Below are positions 23,449 to 30,765 of a stretch of 64,000 bases of DNA, in pieces. This DNA comes from a phage: the NCBI GenBank assembly GCA_032430995.1, contig GCA_032430995.1_3952.1, one strand, 5' to 3'. Numbering within the stretch: the first letter of the stretch is position 1; every line of letters starts with the position of its first letter. A program made the translations under genes and the position numbers. The notes beneath the pieces were generated by a model. That model did no database searches, was not told the DNA's origin, and was given only the letters and a program-made list of their open reading frames with translations.

Positions 23449-23820
23449 ATGAAAAACAGAACAAACAAAGGCCAGTTTAAAAAAGGCCAGTCTGGAAACC
23501 CATCTGGAAGACCAAAAGGCTCTCGTAACAAAAGCTCACTTGTAAAAGCTCAACTGACCATTGATAATTCTGCTGAGTTTGCTGCAAAGTTGTTTGAAGC
23601 AATTGTTACAAGGGATGCTGCTAAGCTTGCAGAGTTCGGGTTAAACACAGACGACGTAACCATCAAGAGCATGATTGAGGTCGGTAAAACTATCATGACT
23701 CACTCAGCAGGTGAGATGAAAGCCATTGCAGCAGACACTAAGAAGACTCCTGATAACGGTGGTCAGTCTCAGACAGATAACAAACCAACGTTCTCTGCTG
23801 TAGCGACTCTTAAAAAATAA
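23449..23820 (+). CDS. hypothetical protein with N-terminal basic GNPSGRPKG motif
   Basis: 123-aa ORF. Confidence 0.5.
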   Translation: MKNRTNKGQFKKGQSGNPSGRPKGSRNKSSLVKAQLTIDNSAEFAAKLFEAIVTRDAAKLAEFGLNTDDVTIKSMIEVGKTIMTHSAGEMKAIAADTKKTPDNGGQSQTDNKPTFSAVATLKK

Positions 23821-23901
23821 TTTTAAAAGATGTTGACAGACTCTACAAAGTTGCTCTAAAGTCTGTCACATCAAACAACAAATGAGAGAAGAGAGTAAAA
23901 T

Positions 23902-25317
23902 ATGAGCGAATTATTTAAACATGCGCACCTTCATGCAGGTCGAACTGAAAATGGTGCTGTAAACCATACTTCATCAATGTCTGCTCTTGTAGACTTTTAC
24001 AAAGCTGCTGGTTCAAGCCGTAGCAACGTAGAAATCTTACCAGACCTGTTCTACAAAGCTTTGCGTGAGGATGTTGATGTTGCAGTTCGTATTTTGCTTC
24101 ATATGCGAGATGTACGAGAAGGTATGGGTGAGCGTAAAGCCTTCAGAACTGTTTTGCTTCAAGCAATTGAAGATAAAGTTTTAGAGCCTACACAGGTTCT
24201 TCGCATTATGGATAAGATTGCAGAACTTGGTCGTTTTGATGACTTCAAAATCTTCGTGGGTACTTGTTTCGAGACAGATGCCTTCAAACATTTAGAAGCA
24301 GCATTACTAGACCCTGCAACAGCAGGTTTGGCGGCTAAGTGGTTACCACGAGTCAAACCACGTCATAAGCAGTTTGTAAAACGTTTCTGCAAGTTTGCCA
24401 ACTTGAGTGAGAAAGAGTACCGCACACTGTTGTCTGCACTATCTGATACAGTTGAGCAAAAAATCTCTGCTAATGAGTTTGGTAAGATTGACTACAGTAA
24501 GATTCCTTCACTTGCTGCTGCACGTTACCAAAAACTGTTTAACCGTAAAGATGGAGAGCGTTACAAAGCTTACATCGAGTCCTTATCAAAAGGTGAGACT
24601 AAGATTAGCGCTGGTGCTGTTTACCCATACGATGTGATTAAATCTGTCAAGCATGGTAATGCAGATGTTGCTAATGAGCAGTGGAAAGCACTACCAAACT
24701 GGATGGCAGAAGGTGAAAACATCTTGTGTATGTCTGATGTATCAAGTTCAATGTCTTGGGTGAATTTTGGCTCCATTACTGCTCTGGATATTGGTGTATC
24801 ACTTGCCTTGTATGTAGCAGAACGCAATACAGGTTGCTTTAAGAATGAGTTGATGGTTTATTCAACAAACCCTCACTTCATCGAACTGAGTGGTGATTTA
24901 CGAAACCGTCATCGTCAGGTGATGCGACACGTTGAATATGGCTCAACTAACTTACAAGCAGCTTTTGACCGCATTCTTGAGACAGGCAAAAGAAACAACT
25001 TGACTCAGAAAGATATGCCAAGTAAGCTTATCATCTTCTCCGATATGGAGTTTAATCAGGTTGATGGGGCTAACGGTCGTACAAACTTTGAAGCAATTCA
25101 GAGTAAGTACAAAAAAGCTGGATATGAGATGCCACAACTGGTATTCTGGTACTTAGCAAACCGTAATGGTACTTGCGAAGTATCTGTTAAGGATAACGGT
25201 GTAGCAATGGTATCAGGGTTCTCTCCAGCCACTTTAAAAGCTCTGCTTGGTGGTGAGAAGTTTGACCCAATCAGTGTAATGCTCAAAGCAGTAATGATTG
25301 ACCGTTATATCTGGTAA
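23902..25317 (+). CDS. Ro60/Rsr-like protein (TROVE-like N-domain plus vWA domain with MIDAS motif)
   Basis: 471 aa; MIDAS-like DVSSSM; C-terminal blocks (GSI, IIFSDMEF, VSGFSPATLKAL) resemble the Ro60 vWA region as recalled from memory. Confidence 0.45.
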   Translation: MSELFKHAHLHAGRTENGAVNHTSSMSALVDFYKAAGSSRSNVEILPDLFYKALREDVDVAVRILLHMRDVREGMGERKAFRTVLLQAIEDKVLEPTQVLRIMDKIAELGRFDDFKIFVGTCFETDAFKHLEAALLDPATAGLAAKWLPRVKPRHKQFVKRFCKFANLSEKEYRTLLSALSDTVEQKISANEFGKIDYSKIPSLAAARYQKLFNRKDGERYKAYIESLSKGETKISAGAVYPYDVIKSVKHGNADVANEQWKALPNWMAEGENILCMSDVSSSMSWVNFGSITALDIGVSLALYVAERNTGCFKNELMVYSTNPHFIELSGDLRNRHRQVMRHVEYGSTNLQAAFDRILETGKRNNLTQKDMPSKLIIFSDMEFNQVDGANGRTNFEAIQSKYKKAGYEMPQLVFWYLANRNGTCEVSVKDNGVAMVSGFSPATLKALLGGEKFDPISVMLKAVMIDRYIW

Positions 25318-25335
25318 AAAGTTTTAAAAAGGGTA

Positions 25336-25364
25336 TTGACAATGTGTTTAATACCCTTTAATAT
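25336..25364 (+). promoter_or_regulatory. sigma70-like promoter upstream of tRNA array
   Basis: TTGACA-17-TAATAT. Confidence 0.5.
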
Positions 25365-25481
25365 GTTCTACATAGAAACGAAATGAGAGCTTTTCTAAGA
25401 TACTGAAAAATATTTTAAAAAGTTCTTGACAACCACTAAAAAATAATGTTAAAGTGGTTACATAGAGTTTGAAAAGTTTAT

Positions 25482-25558
25482 CTCTGTTTAGCTCAGCTTG
25501 GTAGAGCGTTCCGTTTGGGGCGGTAAGGCCGGAGGTTCAAGTCCTCCAACAGAGACCA
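25482..25558 (+). tRNA. tRNA-Pro (anticodon TGG)
   Basis: hand-folded cloverleaf; acceptor CTCTGTT/AACAGAG; T-loop TTCAAGT; CCA encoded. Confidence 0.7.
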
Positions 25559-25565
25559 AATTAAT

Positions 25566-25643
25566 GTTCCAGTGGACAAAATGGTAAAGTCACCACTCTT
25601 TCAAAGTGGATATTTGAGGGTTCAAATCCCTTCTGGAACGCCA
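25566..25643 (+). tRNA. tRNA-Glu (anticodon TTC)
   Basis: acceptor GTTCCAG/CTGGAAC; anticodon stem CCACT/AGTGG; CCA encoded. Confidence 0.7.
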
Positions 25644-25733
25644 GTTTTGACAGAAGACCAATTACAGCAAACTTAATCTACTCATCTGAAAGTTAATCGG
25701 ACAAAGAAGATATTTGGTCTGGTCATTAAGAAT

Positions 25734-25810
25734 TGCGGGTATAGAGAAAGGGCGTCTCACATGTCTCATTAGCATGGTATCGGCAGGTTCGACTCCTGCA
25801 CCCGCCTCCA
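25734..25810 (+). tRNA. tRNA with CAT anticodon (Met or Ile-lysidine), atypical
   Basis: T-arm GCAGG-TTCGACT-CCTGC; anticodon loop CTCATTA; 1:72 mismatch and 3-bp D-stem. Confidence 0.45.
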
Positions 25811-25893
25811 AATTTACAGAAGACCGTTTACAGCAATATTTATTAAATTTTTAGCGGAAAAATTGAAAGATACGGTCTGGTAATACTAAACAT

Positions 25894-25970
25894 GGTTAGG
25901 AAGCACATAAGGTATGTGCGGTCGCCTGTTAAGCGAATGGCACAGGGTTCGAATCCCTGACTAACCGCCA
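25894..25970 (+). tRNA. tRNA-Asn (anticodon GTT)
   Basis: T-arm CAGGG-TTCGAAT-CCCTG; anticodon loop CTGTTAA. Confidence 0.6.
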
Positions 25971-26039
25971 AATTTAGGAGAGAAGCGATTGCTCACCGAT
26001 TTGTAAGGTGCAAGTCCTTAGCCTGAATAGAAATCAAAT

Positions 26040-26127
26040 GTGTCGTTATCCCGTAGATGGTAGCGGTGGGGACTGTAAATCCCTTGTCATTGAGACTCGG
26101 TAGGTTCGACTCCTACACGGCACACCA
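26040..26127 (+). tRNA. tRNA-Tyr (anticodon GTA), class II
   Basis: long variable arm; anticodon loop CTGTAAA; T-arm GTAGG-TTCGACT-CCTAC. Confidence 0.65.
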
Positions 26128-26133
26128 AATAAA

Positions 26134-26211
26134 GGTTATGTAGTTTAATCTGGTTAAAATACTCCCCTGTCACGGGAGATGATGAGGGTTCAAATCCCTT
26201 CGTAACCGCCA
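26134..26211 (+). tRNA. tRNA-Asp (anticodon GTC)
   Basis: anticodon stem CTCCC/GGGAG, loop CTGTCAC. Confidence 0.7.
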
Positions 26212-26359
26212 ATTTTGAGAGGGCTATTTAGCCCCTCCCTTAAAGGGTTCTTACGAGTATTCTTTAAAGGAGCAGAAGACCAAATACAGCAAGTTATTTA
26301 AAATTTCAAGCCAATTTAATTTTGAAAAATTTAAAACTTGGTCTGGCTCAACAAATTTA

Positions 26360-26491
26360 CAGAAGACCGTTTACAGCAAAACTTAAACAATCTATTTCTC
26401 CGGTAAAGAAAAGGCGAAGGTTCGATTCCTTCACTCGGCAGATGTCGAGTTGGTGTAATGGTAGCACTTAAGATGATAAACAACGGTCTGG
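26360..26491 (+). ncRNA. candidate structured RNA with orphan tRNA-like T-arm (Y-RNA/YrlA-like hypothesis)
   Basis: flanked by AGACCGT / ACGGTCT arms; contains GAAGG-TTCGATT-CCTTC T-arm (26416-26432) without a full cloverleaf. Confidence 0.3.
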
Positions 26492-26640
26492 TAATTATCT
26501 TTGTAGATAAGTTATTAAGCTTACCTGTGAGTATGCGACCACAAAGGGTGAAAGGGTAAATTCTAGATTTAAACCCAAAAAGGCACATCGCTACAGACCT
26601 TAAGCAAGTCTGGGTAGCTTATCTACAAAGATAATTTAAT

Positions 26641-26716
26641 GGAAGTGTAGCAGAATGGTGATGCGGCAGACTTTTAATCTGACAGGCGATGGGTTCGAAT
26701 CCCTCCACTTCTACCA
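26641..26716 (+). tRNA. tRNA-Lys (anticodon TTT)
   Basis: acceptor GGAAGTG/CACTTCT; anticodon loop CTTTTAA; weak T-stem. Confidence 0.55.
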
Positions 26717-26794
26717 AATTCACCCTTAACTGAGAAACACCTGCGCGGCTGGAAACACCCACTCAACAGTTTCTCTAACTAGGGTACTTATTCT

Positions 26795-26871
26795 GGTTCA
26801 GTCGCAGATAAGGTAATGCAAGGGTCTCATAAGCCCTATGAATGTGGGTTCGATTCCCATCTGAACCTCCA
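26795..26871 (+). tRNA. tRNA-Met (anticodon CAT)
   Basis: acceptor GGTTCAG/CTGAACC; anticodon stem AGGGT/GCCCT, loop CTCATAA. Confidence 0.65.
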
Positions 26872-26872
26872 A

Positions 26873-26948
26873 GCTGGTATAGTTAAGAAGGTTATAACAC
26901 TCCCCTGATAAGGGAACATCGGTGGTTCGATTCCACCTACCAGTACCA
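26873..26948 (+). tRNA. tRNA-Ile (anticodon GAT)
   Basis: T-arm GGTGG-TTCGATT-CCACC; anticodon loop CTGATAA. Confidence 0.65.
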
Positions 26949-26963
26949 ATTTCAATAAAGTTG

Positions 26964-26992
26964 TTGACATTGAGATGTGACTACTTTATAGT
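26964..26992 (+). promoter_or_regulatory. internal sigma70-like promoter within tRNA array
   Basis: TTGACA-17-TATAGT. Confidence 0.55.
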
Positions 26993-27194
26993 AACCTTAG
27001 TTTTCGTTGCGTAGCGTCTATTTTGCAAATTTAAAATAAATGCAAACGACAATGTTTTTCTGGCAGTAGCTTGATAGGCTAAACACCAGTGAGGTCTTCC
27101 AATCCCTCATCAAAGAATTTGGCGTACTCGCCCACGGTATGATTAATAAGGTGGGCATCTTTAAGGGCTTTCTAAGAGAGTCTTTAAAGATAAT

Positions 27195-27271
27195 GCACCC
27201 TTAGTTCAATTGGATAGAGCAACGGTCTTCTAAATCGTTAGTTACAGGTTCGAATCCTGTAGGGTGTACCA
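27195..27271 (+). tRNA. tRNA-Arg (anticodon TCT)
   Basis: D-arm GTTCAATTGGATAGAGC; anticodon loop CTTCTAA; T-arm ACAGG-TTCGAAT-CCTGT. Confidence 0.7.
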
Positions 27272-27413
27272 AATAGTTAGCAGATTACTTAGACGGCCTT
27301 AGCGGGTCTTCCTGTAGGGAGGTGGTCTGTATCTCATGTTTTCCAGAACATGTAAATAATCTGAGAAGGAGCTTGACAGTGTTGAGATAACAGGGTAAGC
27401 TTCGAATTATAAT

Positions 27414-27496
27414 ATGGGACGATGTTAAGACTCTAAGGCATGAGCAACGGCCTCCAAAACCGTTTCAAAGGGGTTCAACTCCTCCGTCCCATGCCA
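27414..27496 (+). tRNA. tRNA-like gene, possible Trp (anticodon CCA), atypical D region
   Basis: acceptor ATGGGAC/GTCCCAT; loop CTCCAAA; D region about 6 nt longer than canonical. Confidence 0.35.
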
Positions 27497-27509
27497 AAGT
27501 CTTATTAGG

Positions 27510-27597
27510 GGTAGGTAGCGGCTAATGGTAGCCAAACTGTCTTGAAAACAGTTGCCACTGTAGAGATACGGTGAGGGTTCGACTCCTTTACTTACCG
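27510..27597 (+). tRNA. tRNA-Ser (anticodon TGA), class II
   Basis: anticodon stem ACTGT/ACAGT, loop CTTGAAA; long variable arm; no CCA encoded. Confidence 0.65.
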
Positions 27598-27853
27598 CCT
27601 AATAAGATTTACTCCGTCCATGCTTGTTCGCATTGTCGGTTTATCCCTCGTGTATTGTCGTACACTGTCAAAGCACCTAGTAGGTGTCACGGAGAAGAGA
27701 TAATATCAAGCTCTCCAAAGGTTCTAGTCACCGGATTAAACAAGACTATGCAAAGACCTATTTAGGTCTTTTTAGAGGGCTTCTAAGGTTATTAGTCGCT
27801 TGTTGTGGAACCTTGTTGCTTAGGTTCTTAGAAGTTCTCTAAAAAGATTTAAT

Positions 27854-27931
27854 GGGAGATTGACGGTAATTGGTAAACCTACCATCCTTAGAAGTTGGTG
27901 TTTGAGGGTTCGAATCCCTTGTCTCCTACCA
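27854..27931 (+). tRNA. tRNA-like gene, anticodon uncertain (best fold gives TAG)
   Basis: acceptor GGGAGAT/GTCTCCT; T-arm GAGGG-TTCGAAT-CCCTT; anticodon stem has a mismatch. Confidence 0.4.
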
Positions 27932-27938
27932 AATTAAT

Positions 27939-28014
27939 GCAGGTGTAGCAAAATGGTTATGCGGCTGACTCTTAATCAGTAAGACGATGGGTTCAATTCC
28001 CTCCACCTGTACCA
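27939..28014 (+). tRNA. tRNA-Lys (anticodon CTT)
   Basis: anticodon stem GCTGA/TCAGT, loop CTCTTAA; T-arm similar to Lys(TTT) copy. Confidence 0.5.
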
Positions 28015-28020
28015 AACATT

Positions 28021-28096
28021 GGGGATGTAGTTTACATGGTTAAAACATAAGTTTTGCAAACTTAAGTACAGGGTTCAATTCCCTGCTTCTCCACCA
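28021..28096 (+). tRNA. tRNA-Ala (anticodon TGC)
   Basis: D-stem GTTT/AAAC; anticodon stem TAAGT/ACTTA, loop TTTGCAA. Confidence 0.6.
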
Positions 28097-28102
28097 ATTA
28101 GT

Positions 28103-28177
28103 GCATCCATAGTTTAAACGGGAAAATTACAGTCTTCCAAACTGAGGTTGAGGGTTCGATTCCCTCTGGATGCTCCA
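28103..28177 (+). tRNA. tRNA-Gly (anticodon TCC)
   Basis: acceptor GCATCCA/TGGATGC; loop CTTCCAA; T-arm GAGGG-TTCGATT-CCCTC. Confidence 0.65.
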
Positions 28178-28183
28178 AACAAT

Positions 28184-28260
28184 GCTGCTTTCGTATAATT
28201 GGCTATTACACATCCCTTGTAAGGATGGAAATGCAGGTTCGAGTCCTGTGAGCAGCACCA
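28184..28260 (+). tRNA. tRNA-Thr (anticodon TGT)
   Basis: anticodon stem CATCC/GGATG, loop CTTGTAA. Confidence 0.7.
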
Positions 28261-28356
28261 ATTCAGAGGTCAAGTGAAAGACCGCTTTGAGTCAACTGAA
28301 GACCGTAACAAATACCACGGAGTTGAGTTAGCGGCACAACTTCAGACCTCTTTCAT

Positions 28357-28431
28357 ACTCGCTTAGTTTATATGGTAAAACATCACCCTTACAAGATGAA
28401 GAAAAAGGTTCAAGTCCTTTAGTGAGTACCA
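28357..28431 (+). tRNA. tRNA-Val (anticodon TAC)
   Basis: T-arm AAAGG-TTCAAGT-CCTTT; loop CTTACAA. Confidence 0.6.
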
Positions 28432-28432
28432 T

Positions 28433-28510
28433 GTTCCAGTATCCCAATTGGCAGAGGATGCAAGCTCAAACCTTGTATTAGTGACGGTTCGAATCCGTCT
28501 TGGAACACCA
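28433..28510 (+). tRNA. tRNA with CAA anticodon (Leu-reading), short variable arm
   Basis: anticodon stem GCAAG/CTTGT, loop CTCAAAC; T-arm GACGG-TTCGAAT-CCGTC; 75 nt. Confidence 0.5.
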
Positions 28511-28515
28511 ATTTT

Positions 28516-28591
28516 GCAGGATTAGTTCAAATGGAAAGAGCAACAGTCTACGAAGCTGTTAATAGGGGTTCGAATCCCTTATCCTGCGCCA
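28516..28591 (+). tRNA. tRNA-Arg (anticodon ACG)
   Basis: perfect acceptor GCAGGAT/ATCCTGC; loop CTACGAA. Confidence 0.75.
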
Positions 28592-28608
28592 GATAAAAAG
28601 GTGATACT

Positions 28609-28851
28609 ATGCAAACATTAACAGTAGTTGAACATGAAAACTGTGAGAGTATTGAGTTTGTCAGGGTCATTGGTGTTGAACACCACATTTTCTTAAAAGT
28701 GGGATACTTATGCGACCCCGCTAGAGTAGAAAGATTTATACGTGATTGTTTTGGTGGTAGACATCTGAAGAGTGTTATTTTTGAGACAGTTTTACCAGAA
28801 GGTTTAGAAACGAATAATAACATTTACCTCCTTACGAGGATTAGACAATGA
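28609..28851 (+). CDS. hypothetical protein embedded in tRNA array
   Basis: 80-aa ORF with AAAGGTGA RBS. Confidence 0.5.
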   Translation: MQTLTVVEHENCESIEFVRVIGVEHHIFLKVGYLCDPARVERFIRDCFGGRHLKSVIFETVLPEGLETNNNIYLLTRIRQ

Positions 28852-29405
28852 GATACTTAAAGTATGCTTCATGGATTTTCTTAGCTTTGTTAGAGCCATT
28901 TGCAGCAATCTTAGCAGTTATCTTAGCACCTTTTGTAGTTCCATTCTACAGTGAGAAGAAAGGACACTTACCTTTCGGGTTCAGATGGATGGAGACATAT
29001 GACAACCCAATTGATGGTGATGAAGGTCACGTTAAAAGATGGGCTAATATTAGATGGGTTGGTAAACTAGGTGTCTACATGCAAAGAGTCGGATGGCTCT
29101 GGAGAAACAAAGCTTATAACTTCTCTTACCATGTATTAGGAAGAGATGTAAGAGATGTTACTAAGTGGAAAGGTAATATCAACGTAAGTTCTAACCCTGA
29201 AGATAATCAGACTGGTTATCTCCTAATGTGGAACAGTAATGCTTGGGGATTATTCGCTTTTATCCCATCAATTAAAGTCTTCGGTAAACAGTTTTACTGG
29301 AGAATTTATGTTGGATGGAAACTTAAAAGTGTTGTCCCAGAAGAAAGAGCATTCTCAAGGGAAAGAGTTATGTTGGCATTCTTTATTCATCCACTGAGAA
29401 AGTAA
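28848..29405 (+). CDS. hypothetical membrane protein (Trp-rich) embedded in tRNA array
   Basis: 185 aa; N-terminal hydrophobic helix; ATGA start/stop overlap. Confidence 0.5.
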   Translation: MRYLKYASWIFLALLEPFAAILAVILAPFVVPFYSEKKGHLPFGFRWMETYDNPIDGDEGHVKRWANIRWVGKLGVYMQRVGWLWRNKAYNFSYHVLGRDVRDVTKWKGNINVSSNPEDNQTGYLLMWNSNAWGLFAFIPSIKVFGKQFYWRIYVGWKLKSVVPEERAFSRERVMLAFFIHPLRK

Positions 29406-29413
29406 AGATTTAA

Positions 29414-29489
29414 AGGGGATTAGTTTACAAGGTTAAAACCTCGGTCTTTGAAATCGAAGAAGTTGGTTCAATTCCAACATCCCCCGCCA
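29414..29489 (+). tRNA. tRNA-Gln (anticodon TTG)
   Basis: loop CTTTGAA; unpaired 1:72 (A:C); T-arm GTTGG-TTCAATT-CCAAC. Confidence 0.6.
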
Positions 29490-29491
29490 AT

Positions 29492-29570
29492 GCTCCATTA
29501 CTCCAATTGGCAGAGAGGCCAGACTTAAAATCTGTGTTATGTATCGGTTCGAATCCGATATGGAGTACCA
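29492..29570 (+). tRNA. tRNA with TAA anticodon (Leu-reading), short variable arm
   Basis: loop CTTAAAA; D-arm homologous to the 28433 tRNA. Confidence 0.5.
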
Positions 29571-29575
29571 AATTT

Positions 29576-29651
29576 AGCGGTATAGCATAACTGGCAATGC
29601 AGCAGTCTCTGAAGCTGTCCTATTAAGGTTCAAATCCTTATGCCGCTGCCA
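29576..29651 (+). tRNA. tRNA-Gln (anticodon CTG)
   Basis: acceptor AGCGGTA/TGCCGCT; D-stem GCA/TGC; loop CTCTGAA. Confidence 0.5.
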
Positions 29652-29682
29652 CTTCTAAGGATTCTTACGAGAGTCCTTAAAT

Positions 29683-29758
29683 GTGGCCTTATCATAAATG
29701 GTAATGACCCATGCTGTGAACATGGTCTATACGGGTTCAAATCCCGTAGGTCACCCCA
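29683..29758 (+). tRNA. tRNA-His (anticodon GTG)
   Basis: anticodon stem CCATG/CATGG, loop CTGTGAA; discriminator C; no encoded G-1. Confidence 0.7.
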
Positions 29759-29763
29759 ATTTA

Positions 29764-29840
29764 TAGTCCAAGTAGCTTATATGGTTAAAGCGCGTGTCTG
29801 AAAAACATGAGAAGAGGGTTCAAATCCCACTGGACTACCA
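29764..29840 (+). tRNA. tRNA-Phe (anticodon GAA), boundaries uncertain
   Basis: anticodon stem CGTGT/ACATG, loop CTGAAAA; acceptor register ambiguous. Confidence 0.5.
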
Positions 29841-29856
29841 ATTTCAAAGGTGCTTA

Positions 29857-30591
29857 ATGAAAGAGATGACAGAACAAGGTAAGGAGATTTTCAATCTCTT
29901 AAAAACCGGTAAAGGGTTTTCTAACCCCCTTATTACTGGTGCAGCAGTTCTCGGTGGAACCGTAGCTGCCTCTACATCACTTGTAAGCTCTATTAGCTCT
30001 GTATCAGACCCTACAGTAAAGGATAAGCTTGTTGCTGCTGGACTTACAACAGTTCTGCTTAACAGCTTTACCACGAGTCTGACAAGCACTACATCAACCA
30101 CCAAAACACTAACAGATTACGGTCAAAAGTCCATTGATGAGTTTTCATCACGTATGCAGGTAGCAAAAGGTTACTCTAATGTTATGGGTGCAGCAGGTGA
30201 ACAAGTTGGCTGTACACCATTTAGTGGTATTATGGGTGTTGCTACAGAGTATGGTCAAAAAGCTATTGATACGATTAACAGTGCACTAGACGGTGTTAAT
30301 GGTGTGTTAAGTGACTTACAAGACGCTATTGACAAAGGTCTTGATACTATTTCTGATTTAGCTAACCAAGCTGTTAGTAAGATTAATGAAGGTATCTCAA
30401 AGATTACAGCTTATGCAGATGAAGTTGTGCAGATGATTGAAGAAGAAGCTGCTCTTATTGCAGAGTACCTTAAAACGAATATCAATGGGTTCTTAGCAGG
30501 TATCTTACCAGACTGGTTTGATGATGCTTGTAAAACTGGTGTAATTGACACTATTGCAACACCAGAAATGAAGAGCGCATTACAGAAATAA
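29857..30591 (+). CDS. hypothetical Ser/Thr-rich protein
   Basis: track ORF 29794..30591 trimmed to ATG 29857 (MKEMTEQ) because the 5' extension overlaps tRNA-Phe. Confidence 0.5.
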   Translation: MKEMTEQGKEIFNLLKTGKGFSNPLITGAAVLGGTVAASTSLVSSISSVSDPTVKDKLVAAGLTTVLLNSFTTSLTSTTSTTKTLTDYGQKSIDEFSSRMQVAKGYSNVMGAAGEQVGCTPFSGIMGVATEYGQKAIDTINSALDGVNGVLSDLQDAIDKGLDTISDLANQAVSKINEGISKITAYADEVVQMIEEEAALIAEYLKTNINGFLAGILPDWFDDACKTGVIDTIATPEMKSALQK

Positions 30592-30592
30592 T

Positions 30593-30685
30593 GGAAGATT
30601 AACCCTAAAAGGTAAGGGAGCAGTTTGCTAAACTGCCAGTAGCTGAGAAATCGGTGTACCAGTTCAAGTCTGGTATCTTCCTCCA
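30593..30685 (+). tRNA. tRNA-Ser (anticodon GCT), class II
   Basis: perfect acceptor GGAAGAT/ATCTTCC; anticodon stem GCAGT/ACTGC, loop TTGCTAA; long variable arm. Confidence 0.7.
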
Positions 30686-30689
30686 ATTT

Positions 30690-30765
30690 GAATCCGTGAC
30701 AGAAATGGCTATGTACCTGTCTGCAAAACAGGTTTATAAGGGTTCGAGTCCCTTCGGATTCTCCA
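30690..30765 (+). tRNA. tRNA-Cys (anticodon GCA)
   Basis: perfect acceptor GAATCCG/CGGATTC; anticodon stem CCTGT/ACAGG, loop CTGCAAA. Confidence 0.75.

Follow-up and report, generated by a model that had tools for sequence, protein, structure and literature searches.

A 64,000-nucleotide (nt) stretch of phage DNA (NCBI GenBank assembly GCA_032430995.1, contig GCA_032430995.1_3952.1; hereafter, the window) carries on its plus strand a gene for a 471-amino-acid protein with the predicted fold of Ro60 (23902..25317) and, downstream of it, four small structured RNAs embedded in an array of tRNA genes. We consider it probable that the Ro-like protein and these four partner RNAs form a system of the Ro60/Y-RNA type. 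The window comes from a Felixounavirus, a Felix O1-type phage, and the region of interest (23902–26640) has matches in 296 phage records, with 98.5% identity to Escherichia phage VpaE1_ev108. Ro60 with its Y RNAs is a classic ribonucleoprotein whose bacterial and phage roles are still being worked out. Our case draws on three sets of observations: the predicted fold of the protein, RNA structures with compensatory changes, and the genomic coupling of the RNAs to the gene across phages.

Structure comparison identifies the 471-amino-acid protein as a very divergent relative of Ro60/Rsr, predicted to consist of a helical ring and a vWA/MIDAS domain. An AlphaFold model based on an alignment of 50 homologues (pLDDT 88.7, pTM 0.88) was compared with the Protein Data Bank (PDB) using Foldseek, and the first 12 matches were all full-length Ro60/Rsr chains (E ~1e-7, TM ≤0.66) from Xenopus, human, Deinococcus and Thermus phage phiLo, with isolated vWA domains ranking after them. 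The predicted structure has the overall fold of Ro60/Rsr, a ring of helical repeats with a vWA domain. By sequence, the only Pfam families matched at E ≤ 1 were DUF7788 (1.8e-43) and DUF2828 (2.1e-30), with no match to TROVE or VWA, and the protein also matched PHROG 850, labeled 'RNA-binding protein'. Neither a single-protein phmmer search nor an hmmsearch with the 50-sequence profile recovered Ro60 among PDB sequences. We assigned the Ro60 fold from structure comparison, which matches Ro60 where sequence profiles do not. A first-pass annotation of the window, made by a model from the letters and translated reading frames, had already called the protein Ro60/Rsr-like; the Foldseek comparison agrees with that call, while the TROVE profile does not recognize the protein.

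The residues expected of a vWA domain are strongly conserved. That annotation had listed a 471-amino-acid open reading frame (ORF) with a MIDAS motif, DVSSSM, and two further blocks, IIFSDMEF and VSGFSPATLKAL, all of which are present as described. Across the 50 aligned homologues, D279, S281 and S283 of the MIDAS motif (residues 279–284) are invariant, as are S380, D381, M382 and F384 of IIFSDMEF and S438, G439 and S441 of VSGFSP; the key residues of all three blocks, VSGFSPATLKAL included, are invariant. A tblastn search found homologous genes in 710 phage records, with hosts including Vibrio, Aeromonas, Campylobacter, Listeria, Staphylococcus, Enterococcus, Bacillus and Mycobacterium. Some distant homologues, in mycobacteriophages, are annotated as 'Ro-like RNA binding protein'.

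Downstream of the gene, the arms of four RNA units share a repeated sequence. The string AGAAGACCNNNTACAGCAA occurs four times in the window (at 25652, 25818, 26274 and 26361) against 0.08 expected, and none of 100 shuffles reached four copies, so the repeated arms are not a product of chance. Each copy is closed 50–120 nt downstream by NNGGUCUGG. The four units share one fold: read inward from the ends, a 4-bp outer helix gives way to an AGA/G internal loop, then a 7–8-bp helix and then a single-stranded (U/A)UACAGCAA, with a 3' CUG at the end of the module and an invariant G-C pair near the helix base. Differences among the units are compensatory both in the inner helix (AA/UU versus GU/AC) and in the outer helix (UUAC/GUAA, UGAC/GUCA and GAGC/GCUC). 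Folding the spacers had been among the checks suggested in the first-pass annotation, and it revealed this shared bulged helix. The annotation had missed three further copies of the arms and the conserved ACAGCAA motif.

Units 1–3 are stem-loops of 70–80 nt with A/U-rich variable loops and helix-to-helix cores of 58–68 nt. All lie on the plus strand and are scored here with R1, a covariance model described below. Unit 1 occupies the spacer between tRNA-Glu and tRNA-Met (25648..25725; 35.5 bits, E 3.5e-5), where a 7-bp helix AGACCAA/UUGGUCU (25655–25661 with 25714–25720) is followed by UUACAGCAA (25662–25670) and then the variable loop. Unit 2 occupies the spacer between tRNA-Met and tRNA-Asn (25814..25883; 37.4 bits, E 1.1e-5), with a helix AGACCGU/ACGGUCU (25821–25827 with 25872–25878) and UUACAGCAA at 25828–25836. 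Unit 3 lies downstream of tRNA-Asp (26270..26349; 32.5 bits, E 2e-4) and has an outer helix GAGC/GCUC, an inner helix AGACCAA/UUGGUCU (26277–26283 with 26338–26344) and AUACAGCAA at 26284–26292. Because the units are only a few nt from the flanking tRNAs, tRNA processing would release them, and they are probably cut from the tRNA precursor by tRNA-processing enzymes.

Unit 4 (26357..26494, plus strand, 138 nt) combines the same module with a tRNA-like body, as judged by its fold, its motif and a permuted-tRNA test. Its outer helix and AGA loop are those of units 1–3; the arms AGACCGU/ACGGUCU (26364–26370 with 26483–26489), which pair in the minimum free energy (MFE) fold, lead into UUACAGCAA at 26371–26379. 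The first-pass annotation had placed these arms, and a T arm at 26416–26432, correctly. It had described that arm as an orphan without a full cloverleaf, and it is true that no tRNA is called there, but a D arm and a closed acceptor-like hairpin adjoin the T arm and were overlooked. The domain (26395..26467, plus strand) reads in order a variable hairpin UUUCU-CCGGUAA-AGAAA (26395–26411), the T arm GAAGG-TTCGATT-CCTTC (26416–26432), a closed acceptor-like 7-bp hairpin ACUCGGC-AGAU-GUCGAGU (26433–26450), the dinucleotide UG and a D arm GUGU-AAUGGUA-GCAC (26453–26467). The body of unit 4 is therefore a tRNA in permuted order, in which the acceptor stem is closed by a loop and the anticodon arm is replaced by the long terminal helix.

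Tests of the permutation agreed with this description. ARAGORN found no tRNA in native-order unit 4 and none in 300 dinucleotide shuffles, and it returned a cloverleaf only when the ends of the unit were joined and the circle was opened inside the AGAU loop (cuts 83–88). The Rfam tRNA model aligned just the 3' half of unit 4, at 22.5 bits against a gathering score of 29 and with no anticodon loop. Three sequence types of unit 4 occur in Ounavirinae, in all of which the T and D arms are invariant. The closed stem covaries across three phage genera (ACUCGGC/GUCGAGU, ACACG/CGUGU and ACCCUUC/GAAGGGU).

These features support the interpretation of the T-arm spacer as a Y-RNA-like molecule of the YrlA type. 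In YrlA RNAs, T and D arms flank a closed 'acceptor' stem, a variable arm is present, the termini lie in a long helix, and the gene adjoins the Ro60 gene on the same strand (PMC4201824). Unit 4 has this layout, with a T arm, a closed acceptor-like stem-loop and a D arm held in a long end-to-end helix, and it has the location as well, 1.04 kb past the stop codon on the plus strand; YrlA genes share the strand of the Ro60 gene and lie up to ~4 kb from it. A Y-RNA candidate downstream of the gene had been put forward from the sequence alone, and its layout, strand and distance hold; the prediction differs from our result in that there are four RNAs rather than one, and these carry a helix with UUACAGCAA rather than GNCGAA. 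The YrlA motif GNCGAAN0-1G near the 5' end, the presumed contact with Ro60, is lacking in unit 4, which has AGACCGU-UUACAGCAA in its place as the presumed protein-binding module. We note that the YrlA study searched only beside TROVE-annotated proteins (PMC4201824) and would therefore have left out the DUF2828/DUF7788 family.

Similar tRNA-like units recur in other phages that carry the gene. The locus L022 has three, one of which matches Rfam YrlA over its full length (38.2 bits, E 3.3e-6), the alignment taking in the T, acceptor-like and D arms, and Mycobacterium phage Chaser has one, with a weak YrlA match (18.7 bits). Aeromonas phage 4_4572 (L004, 3494–3613) carries an unannotated tRNA-like gene in normal order (Rfam tRNA 49.2 bits, CCA encoded), in which the anticodon loop is swapped for 52 nt comprising a hairpin, UUACAGCAA and a second hairpin.

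The RNA module accompanies the gene across phages whose proteins share only 28%–55% identity. About eight tandem units lie directly upstream of the gene in Aeromonas phage 4_4572, Yersinia phage P778 has one unit among tRNAs, and many metagenomic phages have a ~57-nt unit followed by a ~230-nt unit straight after the stop codon. When 84 loci were oriented on the gene, TACAGCAA occurred 167 times on the gene strand and 15 times on the opposite strand. The covariance model R1 was built from 30 loop-trimmed units, as a whole-unit MAFFT alignment mis-registered the 3' strand, and was searched against 1.25 Mb around homologous genes at 68 loci. R1 gave 77 matches at E ≤ 1, a threshold to be read loosely since R1 E-values are rough, and 76 of these were on the gene strand. 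Fifty of the 68 loci contained a match, and 43 of the 77 matches lay ≤500 nt from the gene, a zone that makes up 5.8% of the searched sequence. Turning the filters off produced fragmented, lower-scoring matches and no extra units in the array.

Pairing within the matches was well conserved, and independent loci show the same core. Of the cells in the match alignment, 98.8% are paired, double substitutions occur at seven of seven pairs, and the G-C pair that is invariant in the 30 training units is G-C in 70 of 74 distinct aligned matches; these statistics are partly circular, as training units were chosen for having the stem and the model itself shaped the match alignment. Independent support thus comes from the strand bias, from how close the matches lie to the gene and from loci outside the training set. 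In the latter, units were found by eye beside the gene in Listeria phage LMSP-25 (three, in the upstream gap), Staphylococcus phage 6ec (three, in the downstream gap), Campylobacter phage F371 (two, upstream) and Mycobacterium phage Chaser, where an unannotated 380-nt downstream gap holds a short unit, a tRNA-like unit, another short unit and a terminator. R1 scores these Listeria, Staphylococcus, Mycobacterium and Campylobacter units weakly (12–19 bits), and their invariant core is ACAGCAA directly 3' of a 6–7-bp helix.

The position of many units among tRNAs could have a simpler cause, in which the units do no more than punctuate the tRNA precursor: as spacer hairpins they would direct cleavage by host RNase E, RNase III or RNase P and then be broken down, unconnected with the protein encoded nearby. 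Units do stand between or beside tRNA genes in the window and at many other loci, matches distant from the gene lie next to tRNA-Met and tmRNA clusters, and the remaining spacers of the array are likewise strongly structured. However, in L022 and the L026–L039 group the module flanks the gene with no tRNA within 10 kb, and in Mycobacterium phage Chaser and Staphylococcus phage 6ec the units occupy short gaps beside the gene that are annotated without tRNA. Since units occur with or without nearby tRNA genes, they are tied to the gene and not to tRNAs. The concentration of matches within 500 nt of the gene and the retention of the ACAGCAA core over phages of four bacterial phyla with differing RNases also fit poorly with punctuation, which we regard as unlikely.

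A further explanation would make the units cis-acting operators, placed in untranslated parts of the array transcript or of the mRNA for the gene, through which the Ro-like protein regulates its own expression or transcript stability. Units often do follow the stop codon or precede the start codon immediately, as in L004, where the last unit ends 13 nt before the ATG. We give this explanation little weight as well, because two promoter-like sites and two tRNAs stand between the gene and unit 1 in the window, up to eight tandem copies occur, some units bear elaborate tRNA-like domains, and some lie 7–8 kb away in tRNA clusters.

Several other structured or RNA-related elements were observed near the gene. 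Conserved RNAs of ~230 nt stand right after the short unit in marine and metagenomic phages (L026 11472–11700, L031 2144–2380, L033 1594–1822 and L039 4793–5032), opening with GGAUCG-GUACAGCAAAAAGUAC and closing with CGAUCC; they match no Rfam family. In other phages, tRNA arrays and tmRNAs are frequent close to the gene. In L040, L050, L057, L071, L075, L077, L078, L083 and L084, phage tmRNA genes follow on the strand of the gene, 1.4–7.4 kb downstream, and L050 and L078 contain tRNAs with anticodon CTA. Units resembling the Class I RNAs discussed below occur ~1–2 kb beyond the tmRNA in L040, L050, L077, L078 and L084, mostly beside tRNA-Met.

Genes of RNA-repair type also occur within a few kb of the gene, in Listeria phage LMSP-25 (L086), Aeromonas phage 4_4572 (L004), Sinorhizobium phage phiM19 (L089) and Mycobacterium phage Chaser (L088). 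They include RtcB 'tRNA splicing ligase' with an HD phosphohydrolase, Rnl2 (RNA ligase 2), an Appr-1-p processing (macro) enzyme and a band-7-like protein. Ro60 is known from RNA-repair operon settings, and frequent RNA-repair neighbors are thus shared by Ro60/Y-RNA systems and DUF2828 loci. Other likenesses are found between the window and the bacterial Ro60 (Rsr)/YrlA/YrlB and TROVE-type phage systems, the latter including cluster C1 mycobacteriophages, CcrColossus, Bacillus phage G and Thermus phage phiLo (Yrl1, Yrl2). Common features are a ring-plus-vWA protein with same-strand small RNAs within ~1 kb, and one RNA type, with a T arm, closed acceptor-like hairpin and D arm held in a long terminal helix, accompanied by simpler stem-loop RNAs. 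The window differs in having a DUF2828/DUF7788 protein that the TROVE profile misses, in RNAs with a helix and (U)UACAGCAA rather than the GNCGAA/CGAA motif of known Y RNAs, and in the embedding of these RNAs, which the YrlA model does not match, in a tRNA array.

A close described counterpart is gp130 of the Felixounavirus Bas63, which by the preprint's description shares the family, genus and position of the window protein. It was reported to be structurally similar to Ro60 and to lie directly upstream of tRNAs, and the authors raised the possibility that Y RNAs are among the 'tRNA genes' (PMC11482910, preprint). It counters the ppl defense system, as shown genetically, and gp130 alone, either from a plasmid or inserted into T7, is enough for this effect (PMC11482910). 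The Ro60-like fold of the protein and the idea of nearby Y RNAs are thus already in the literature. The preprint names no RNA, whereas the candidates described here lie in unannotated spacers, not among annotated tRNAs. In Rfam 15 and the literature searched, the RNAs, their shared module, its DUF2828-linked spread over four bacterial phyla and its likeness to Class I RNAs appear undescribed, and searching the literature for the motif string brought up nothing beyond unrelated primer sequences.

The gp130 result also bears on whether the RNAs are real but work apart from the protein, perhaps as tRNA-like decoys of host anticodon nucleases or as ligands of a conserved host factor, and neighbor the gene only through a shared tRNA and RNA-repair region. 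The action of gp130 on ppl without the RNAs, the tRNA-like bodies of several units, and the RNA-repair genes and tRNAs common nearby are all in keeping with such independence. We nonetheless judge it quite improbable, given the tight (≤500 nt), strand-specific adjacency over phages of very different genome organization and host, and a direct partnership is the simpler explanation given the Ro60 fold and the precedent of Ro60 beside Y RNAs (PMC4201824). Least credible is the idea that unit 4 represents a tRNA pseudogene, through decay or rearrangement, and that the arms are DNA repeats (recombination scars or a small mobile element) without RNA function: another tRNA-like remnant in the array (27413–27497) and a large inverted-repeat element next door that varies among relatives could suggest it, but the permuted T arm, closed stem and D arm recur independently in L022 and Chaser, stems keep pairing via double substitutions, and the motif is strand-specific, 76 to 1.

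Overall, these alternatives are less consistent with the linkage data than a partnership between the Ro-like protein and the RNAs. We note that several observations weigh against the partnership. For the protein, TROVE is missed, and identity to Ro60 is only 11%–16%. For unit 4, the YrlA covariance search that the first-pass annotation had proposed (Rfam RF02553, gathering score 69 bits) gave no match at E ≤ 10. A GGCGAAG overlapping the T stem of unit 4 in Felix-type copies was considered as a GNCGAA motif and rejected, as relatives have GGAGAAG or GAGAGAAG there, and we treat it as chance. For the linkage, 18 of the 68 loci had no R1 match with default filters, the E-values are rough and the pairing statistics partly circular, and the presence of units among tRNAs at many loci makes a role tied to tRNA processing, instead of to the protein, conceivable. 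Finally, because gp130 alone suffices, phage RNAs are not required for anti-ppl activity.

Under the partnership that we favor, we infer that the RNAs are expressed, processed, bound by the protein and functional. The helix with ACAGCAA would be a docking site for the Ro-like ring, as the conserved Y RNA helix is for Ro60, and the variable loops and tRNA-like body could serve as gates of the ring or as its tethers to enzymes that handle RNA or tRNA during infection. Ro60 itself holds Y RNAs on its outer surface and takes the ends of misfolded RNAs into its central hole. By analogy with Y RNAs and Ro60, the RNAs may regulate or retarget the Ro-like protein. Such a complex could serve in RNA surveillance, repair or counter-defense; roles in RNA quality control or against host defenses had been proposed in the first-pass annotation, and we would infer them in the same way.

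The short units resemble an RNA family outside phages and bacteria. The only non-tRNA Rfam family that matched them repeatedly was RF01414, which covers the Dictyostelium Class I RNAs. These are described as 42–65 nt long and confined to Dictyostelia; their 5' G is invariant, and a motif of 11 nt adjoins the 5' strand of the short terminal stem (PMC7919456). The RF01414 consensus, GaUcuC-CUUACAGCAA-(A/U-rich loop)-GagAuC-UG, can be compared with a phage example, GACUUC-UUGCAGCAA...GAAGUC-UG. The 11-nt motif CCUUACAGCAA shares nine of 11 bases with UUACAGCAA in units 1, 2 and 4 and with AUACAGCAA in unit 3, and the architecture is shared as well. Both kinds of RNA have an invariant G-C at or near the base of a 6–7-bp terminal helix with compensated sequence variation (the G being the 5'-terminal nucleotide in Class I RNAs), the string (C)UUACAGCAA directly 3' of the 5' helix strand, an A/U-rich variable loop and a 3' CUG. 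Sizes are also similar, with units of ~50–65 nt in other phages and, in the window, cores of 58–68 nt within full units of 70–80 nt.

Membership in the Class I family is not established, since scores fall below the gathering score of 41.5 bits and helix-to-motif spacing is off by 1 nt. In the window, unit 2 scored 20.1 bits and unit 4 12.8 bits; a 48-kb scan gave three matches of 28–30 bits, the highest phage score being 29.8, and seven full-length matches fell within a 1-kb stretch of Aeromonas phage 4_4572. The phage units are also without a DUSE promoter, and the known direct binder of Class I RNAs is the RRM protein Rnp1A (PMC7919456), unlike the proposed Ro-like partner. Class I RNAs are abundant and developmentally regulated. 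We tentatively raise the possibility, which we hold to be doubtful on present evidence, that RNAs with a helix and ACAGCAA are ligands of the whole DUF2828/DUF7788 branch, including its eukaryotic members, such that Class I RNAs would in effect be 'Y RNAs' belonging to a second Ro lineage. The idea of eukaryotic DUF2828 ligands is in line with two leads: DDB_G0281243, a protein of unknown function, was pulled down with DdR-21, a Class I RNA, and the Dictyostelium model gave a score of 40 to an Arabidopsis locus, UGUUUUC-AUUACAGCAA...GAAAACUG, that was set aside when outgroups were searched (bioRxiv 10.1101/2020.04.05.026054, supplementary file 7). DUF2828 proteins are mentioned in plant studies, and as plants carry such proteins, the Arabidopsis candidate may be worth a second look.

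The array in which the four units are embedded comprises 26 tRNA genes (25482..30765, plus strand), identified by tRNA calling and presumably co-transcribed and processed. Between 26212 and 26640, neither ARAGORN nor Rfam identified a tRNA. Three sigma-70-like promoter candidates were found on the plus strand: TTGACA-18-TAAAGT, 40 nt upstream of the Ro-like gene (23833..23862; 10 of 12 consensus positions), and two between the gene and the first tRNA, TTGACA-17-TAATAT (25336–25364), which sits within a 12-bp hairpin just past the stop codon, and TTGACA-18-TAAAGT with a TG (25426–25455). Promoter-like sites are no commoner in this region than in shuffles and are weak evidence on their own. A 123-amino-acid ORF (23449–23820; Pfam DUF5681, E 2e-14) immediately precedes the Ro-like gene in the same orientation and may represent an accessory gene; Citrobacter phage Mordin and Yersinia phage P778 each have an ORF that agrees with it in size and location and is annotated as 'hypothetical protein'.

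Further along the array, a tRNA-like sequence at 27413–27497 has an acceptor stem UGGGACG/CGUCCCA, a T arm and a terminal ...GCCA; ARAGORN did not call it, and Rfam gave a weak tRNA-Sec match (27416–27490, 23 bits). The strongly structured spacer after tRNA-Ile (26890–27194) weakly matched the tmRNA (15.7 bits) and permuted-tmRNA (29.2 bits) models and contains a promoter-like site (26964–26992); ARAGORN found no tmRNA at 26850–27300 despite these matches. We also considered the 'tRNA-OTHER' features in related GenBank records as candidate RNAs, but these turned out to be the tRNA-Tyr gene. Short ORFs overlie the RNA units at 25662–25811 (minus strand), 26322–26471 (plus strand) and 26331–26588 (minus strand), and some related GenBank records annotate 'hypothetical protein' or 'unknown' there; these are probably mis-called ORFs over non-coding RNAs.

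Immediately beyond unit 4 is a large inverted repeat (26493..26636, plus strand) that folds into a 24-bp perfect stem around ~100 nt (MFE −48.3 kcal/mol, z −5.6; none of 200 shuffles was as stable). The paired 18-mers that the first-pass annotation had associated with the Ro/Y-RNA candidate (26494–26511 and 26618–26635) are exact reverse complements (18 of 18), but no tie to that system emerged. The repeat is a separate and less conserved element: BLAST coverage ends at ~26506–26528 in the more distant Mooglevirus, phiSUSP1-like and Shigella-phage relatives (82%–89% identity), in which the repeat is replaced. The one link to the system that we found is a sequence within it, AGACC-UUAAGCAA-GUCUGG (26595–26613), that looks like a collapsed copy of a unit. 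The inverted repeat might serve as a substrate for RNase III, or it might be a mobile insertion of small size.

For Felix O1-type phages, the four units explain spacers that have been left blank or called small ORFs in existing records. The Bas63 homologue is an experimentally validated counter-defense protein, and studies of its mechanism gain specific RNAs and a motif to mutate. In addition, the module is nearly identical to that of Class I RNAs, so that the question of their binding and function, now 20 years old, becomes a direct test for a DUF2828-type partner. More broadly, a second, very divergent, phage-borne lineage of the Ro60 fold seems to have partner RNAs of its own, which use a different recognition module and show the same split between simple and tRNA-mimicking forms.

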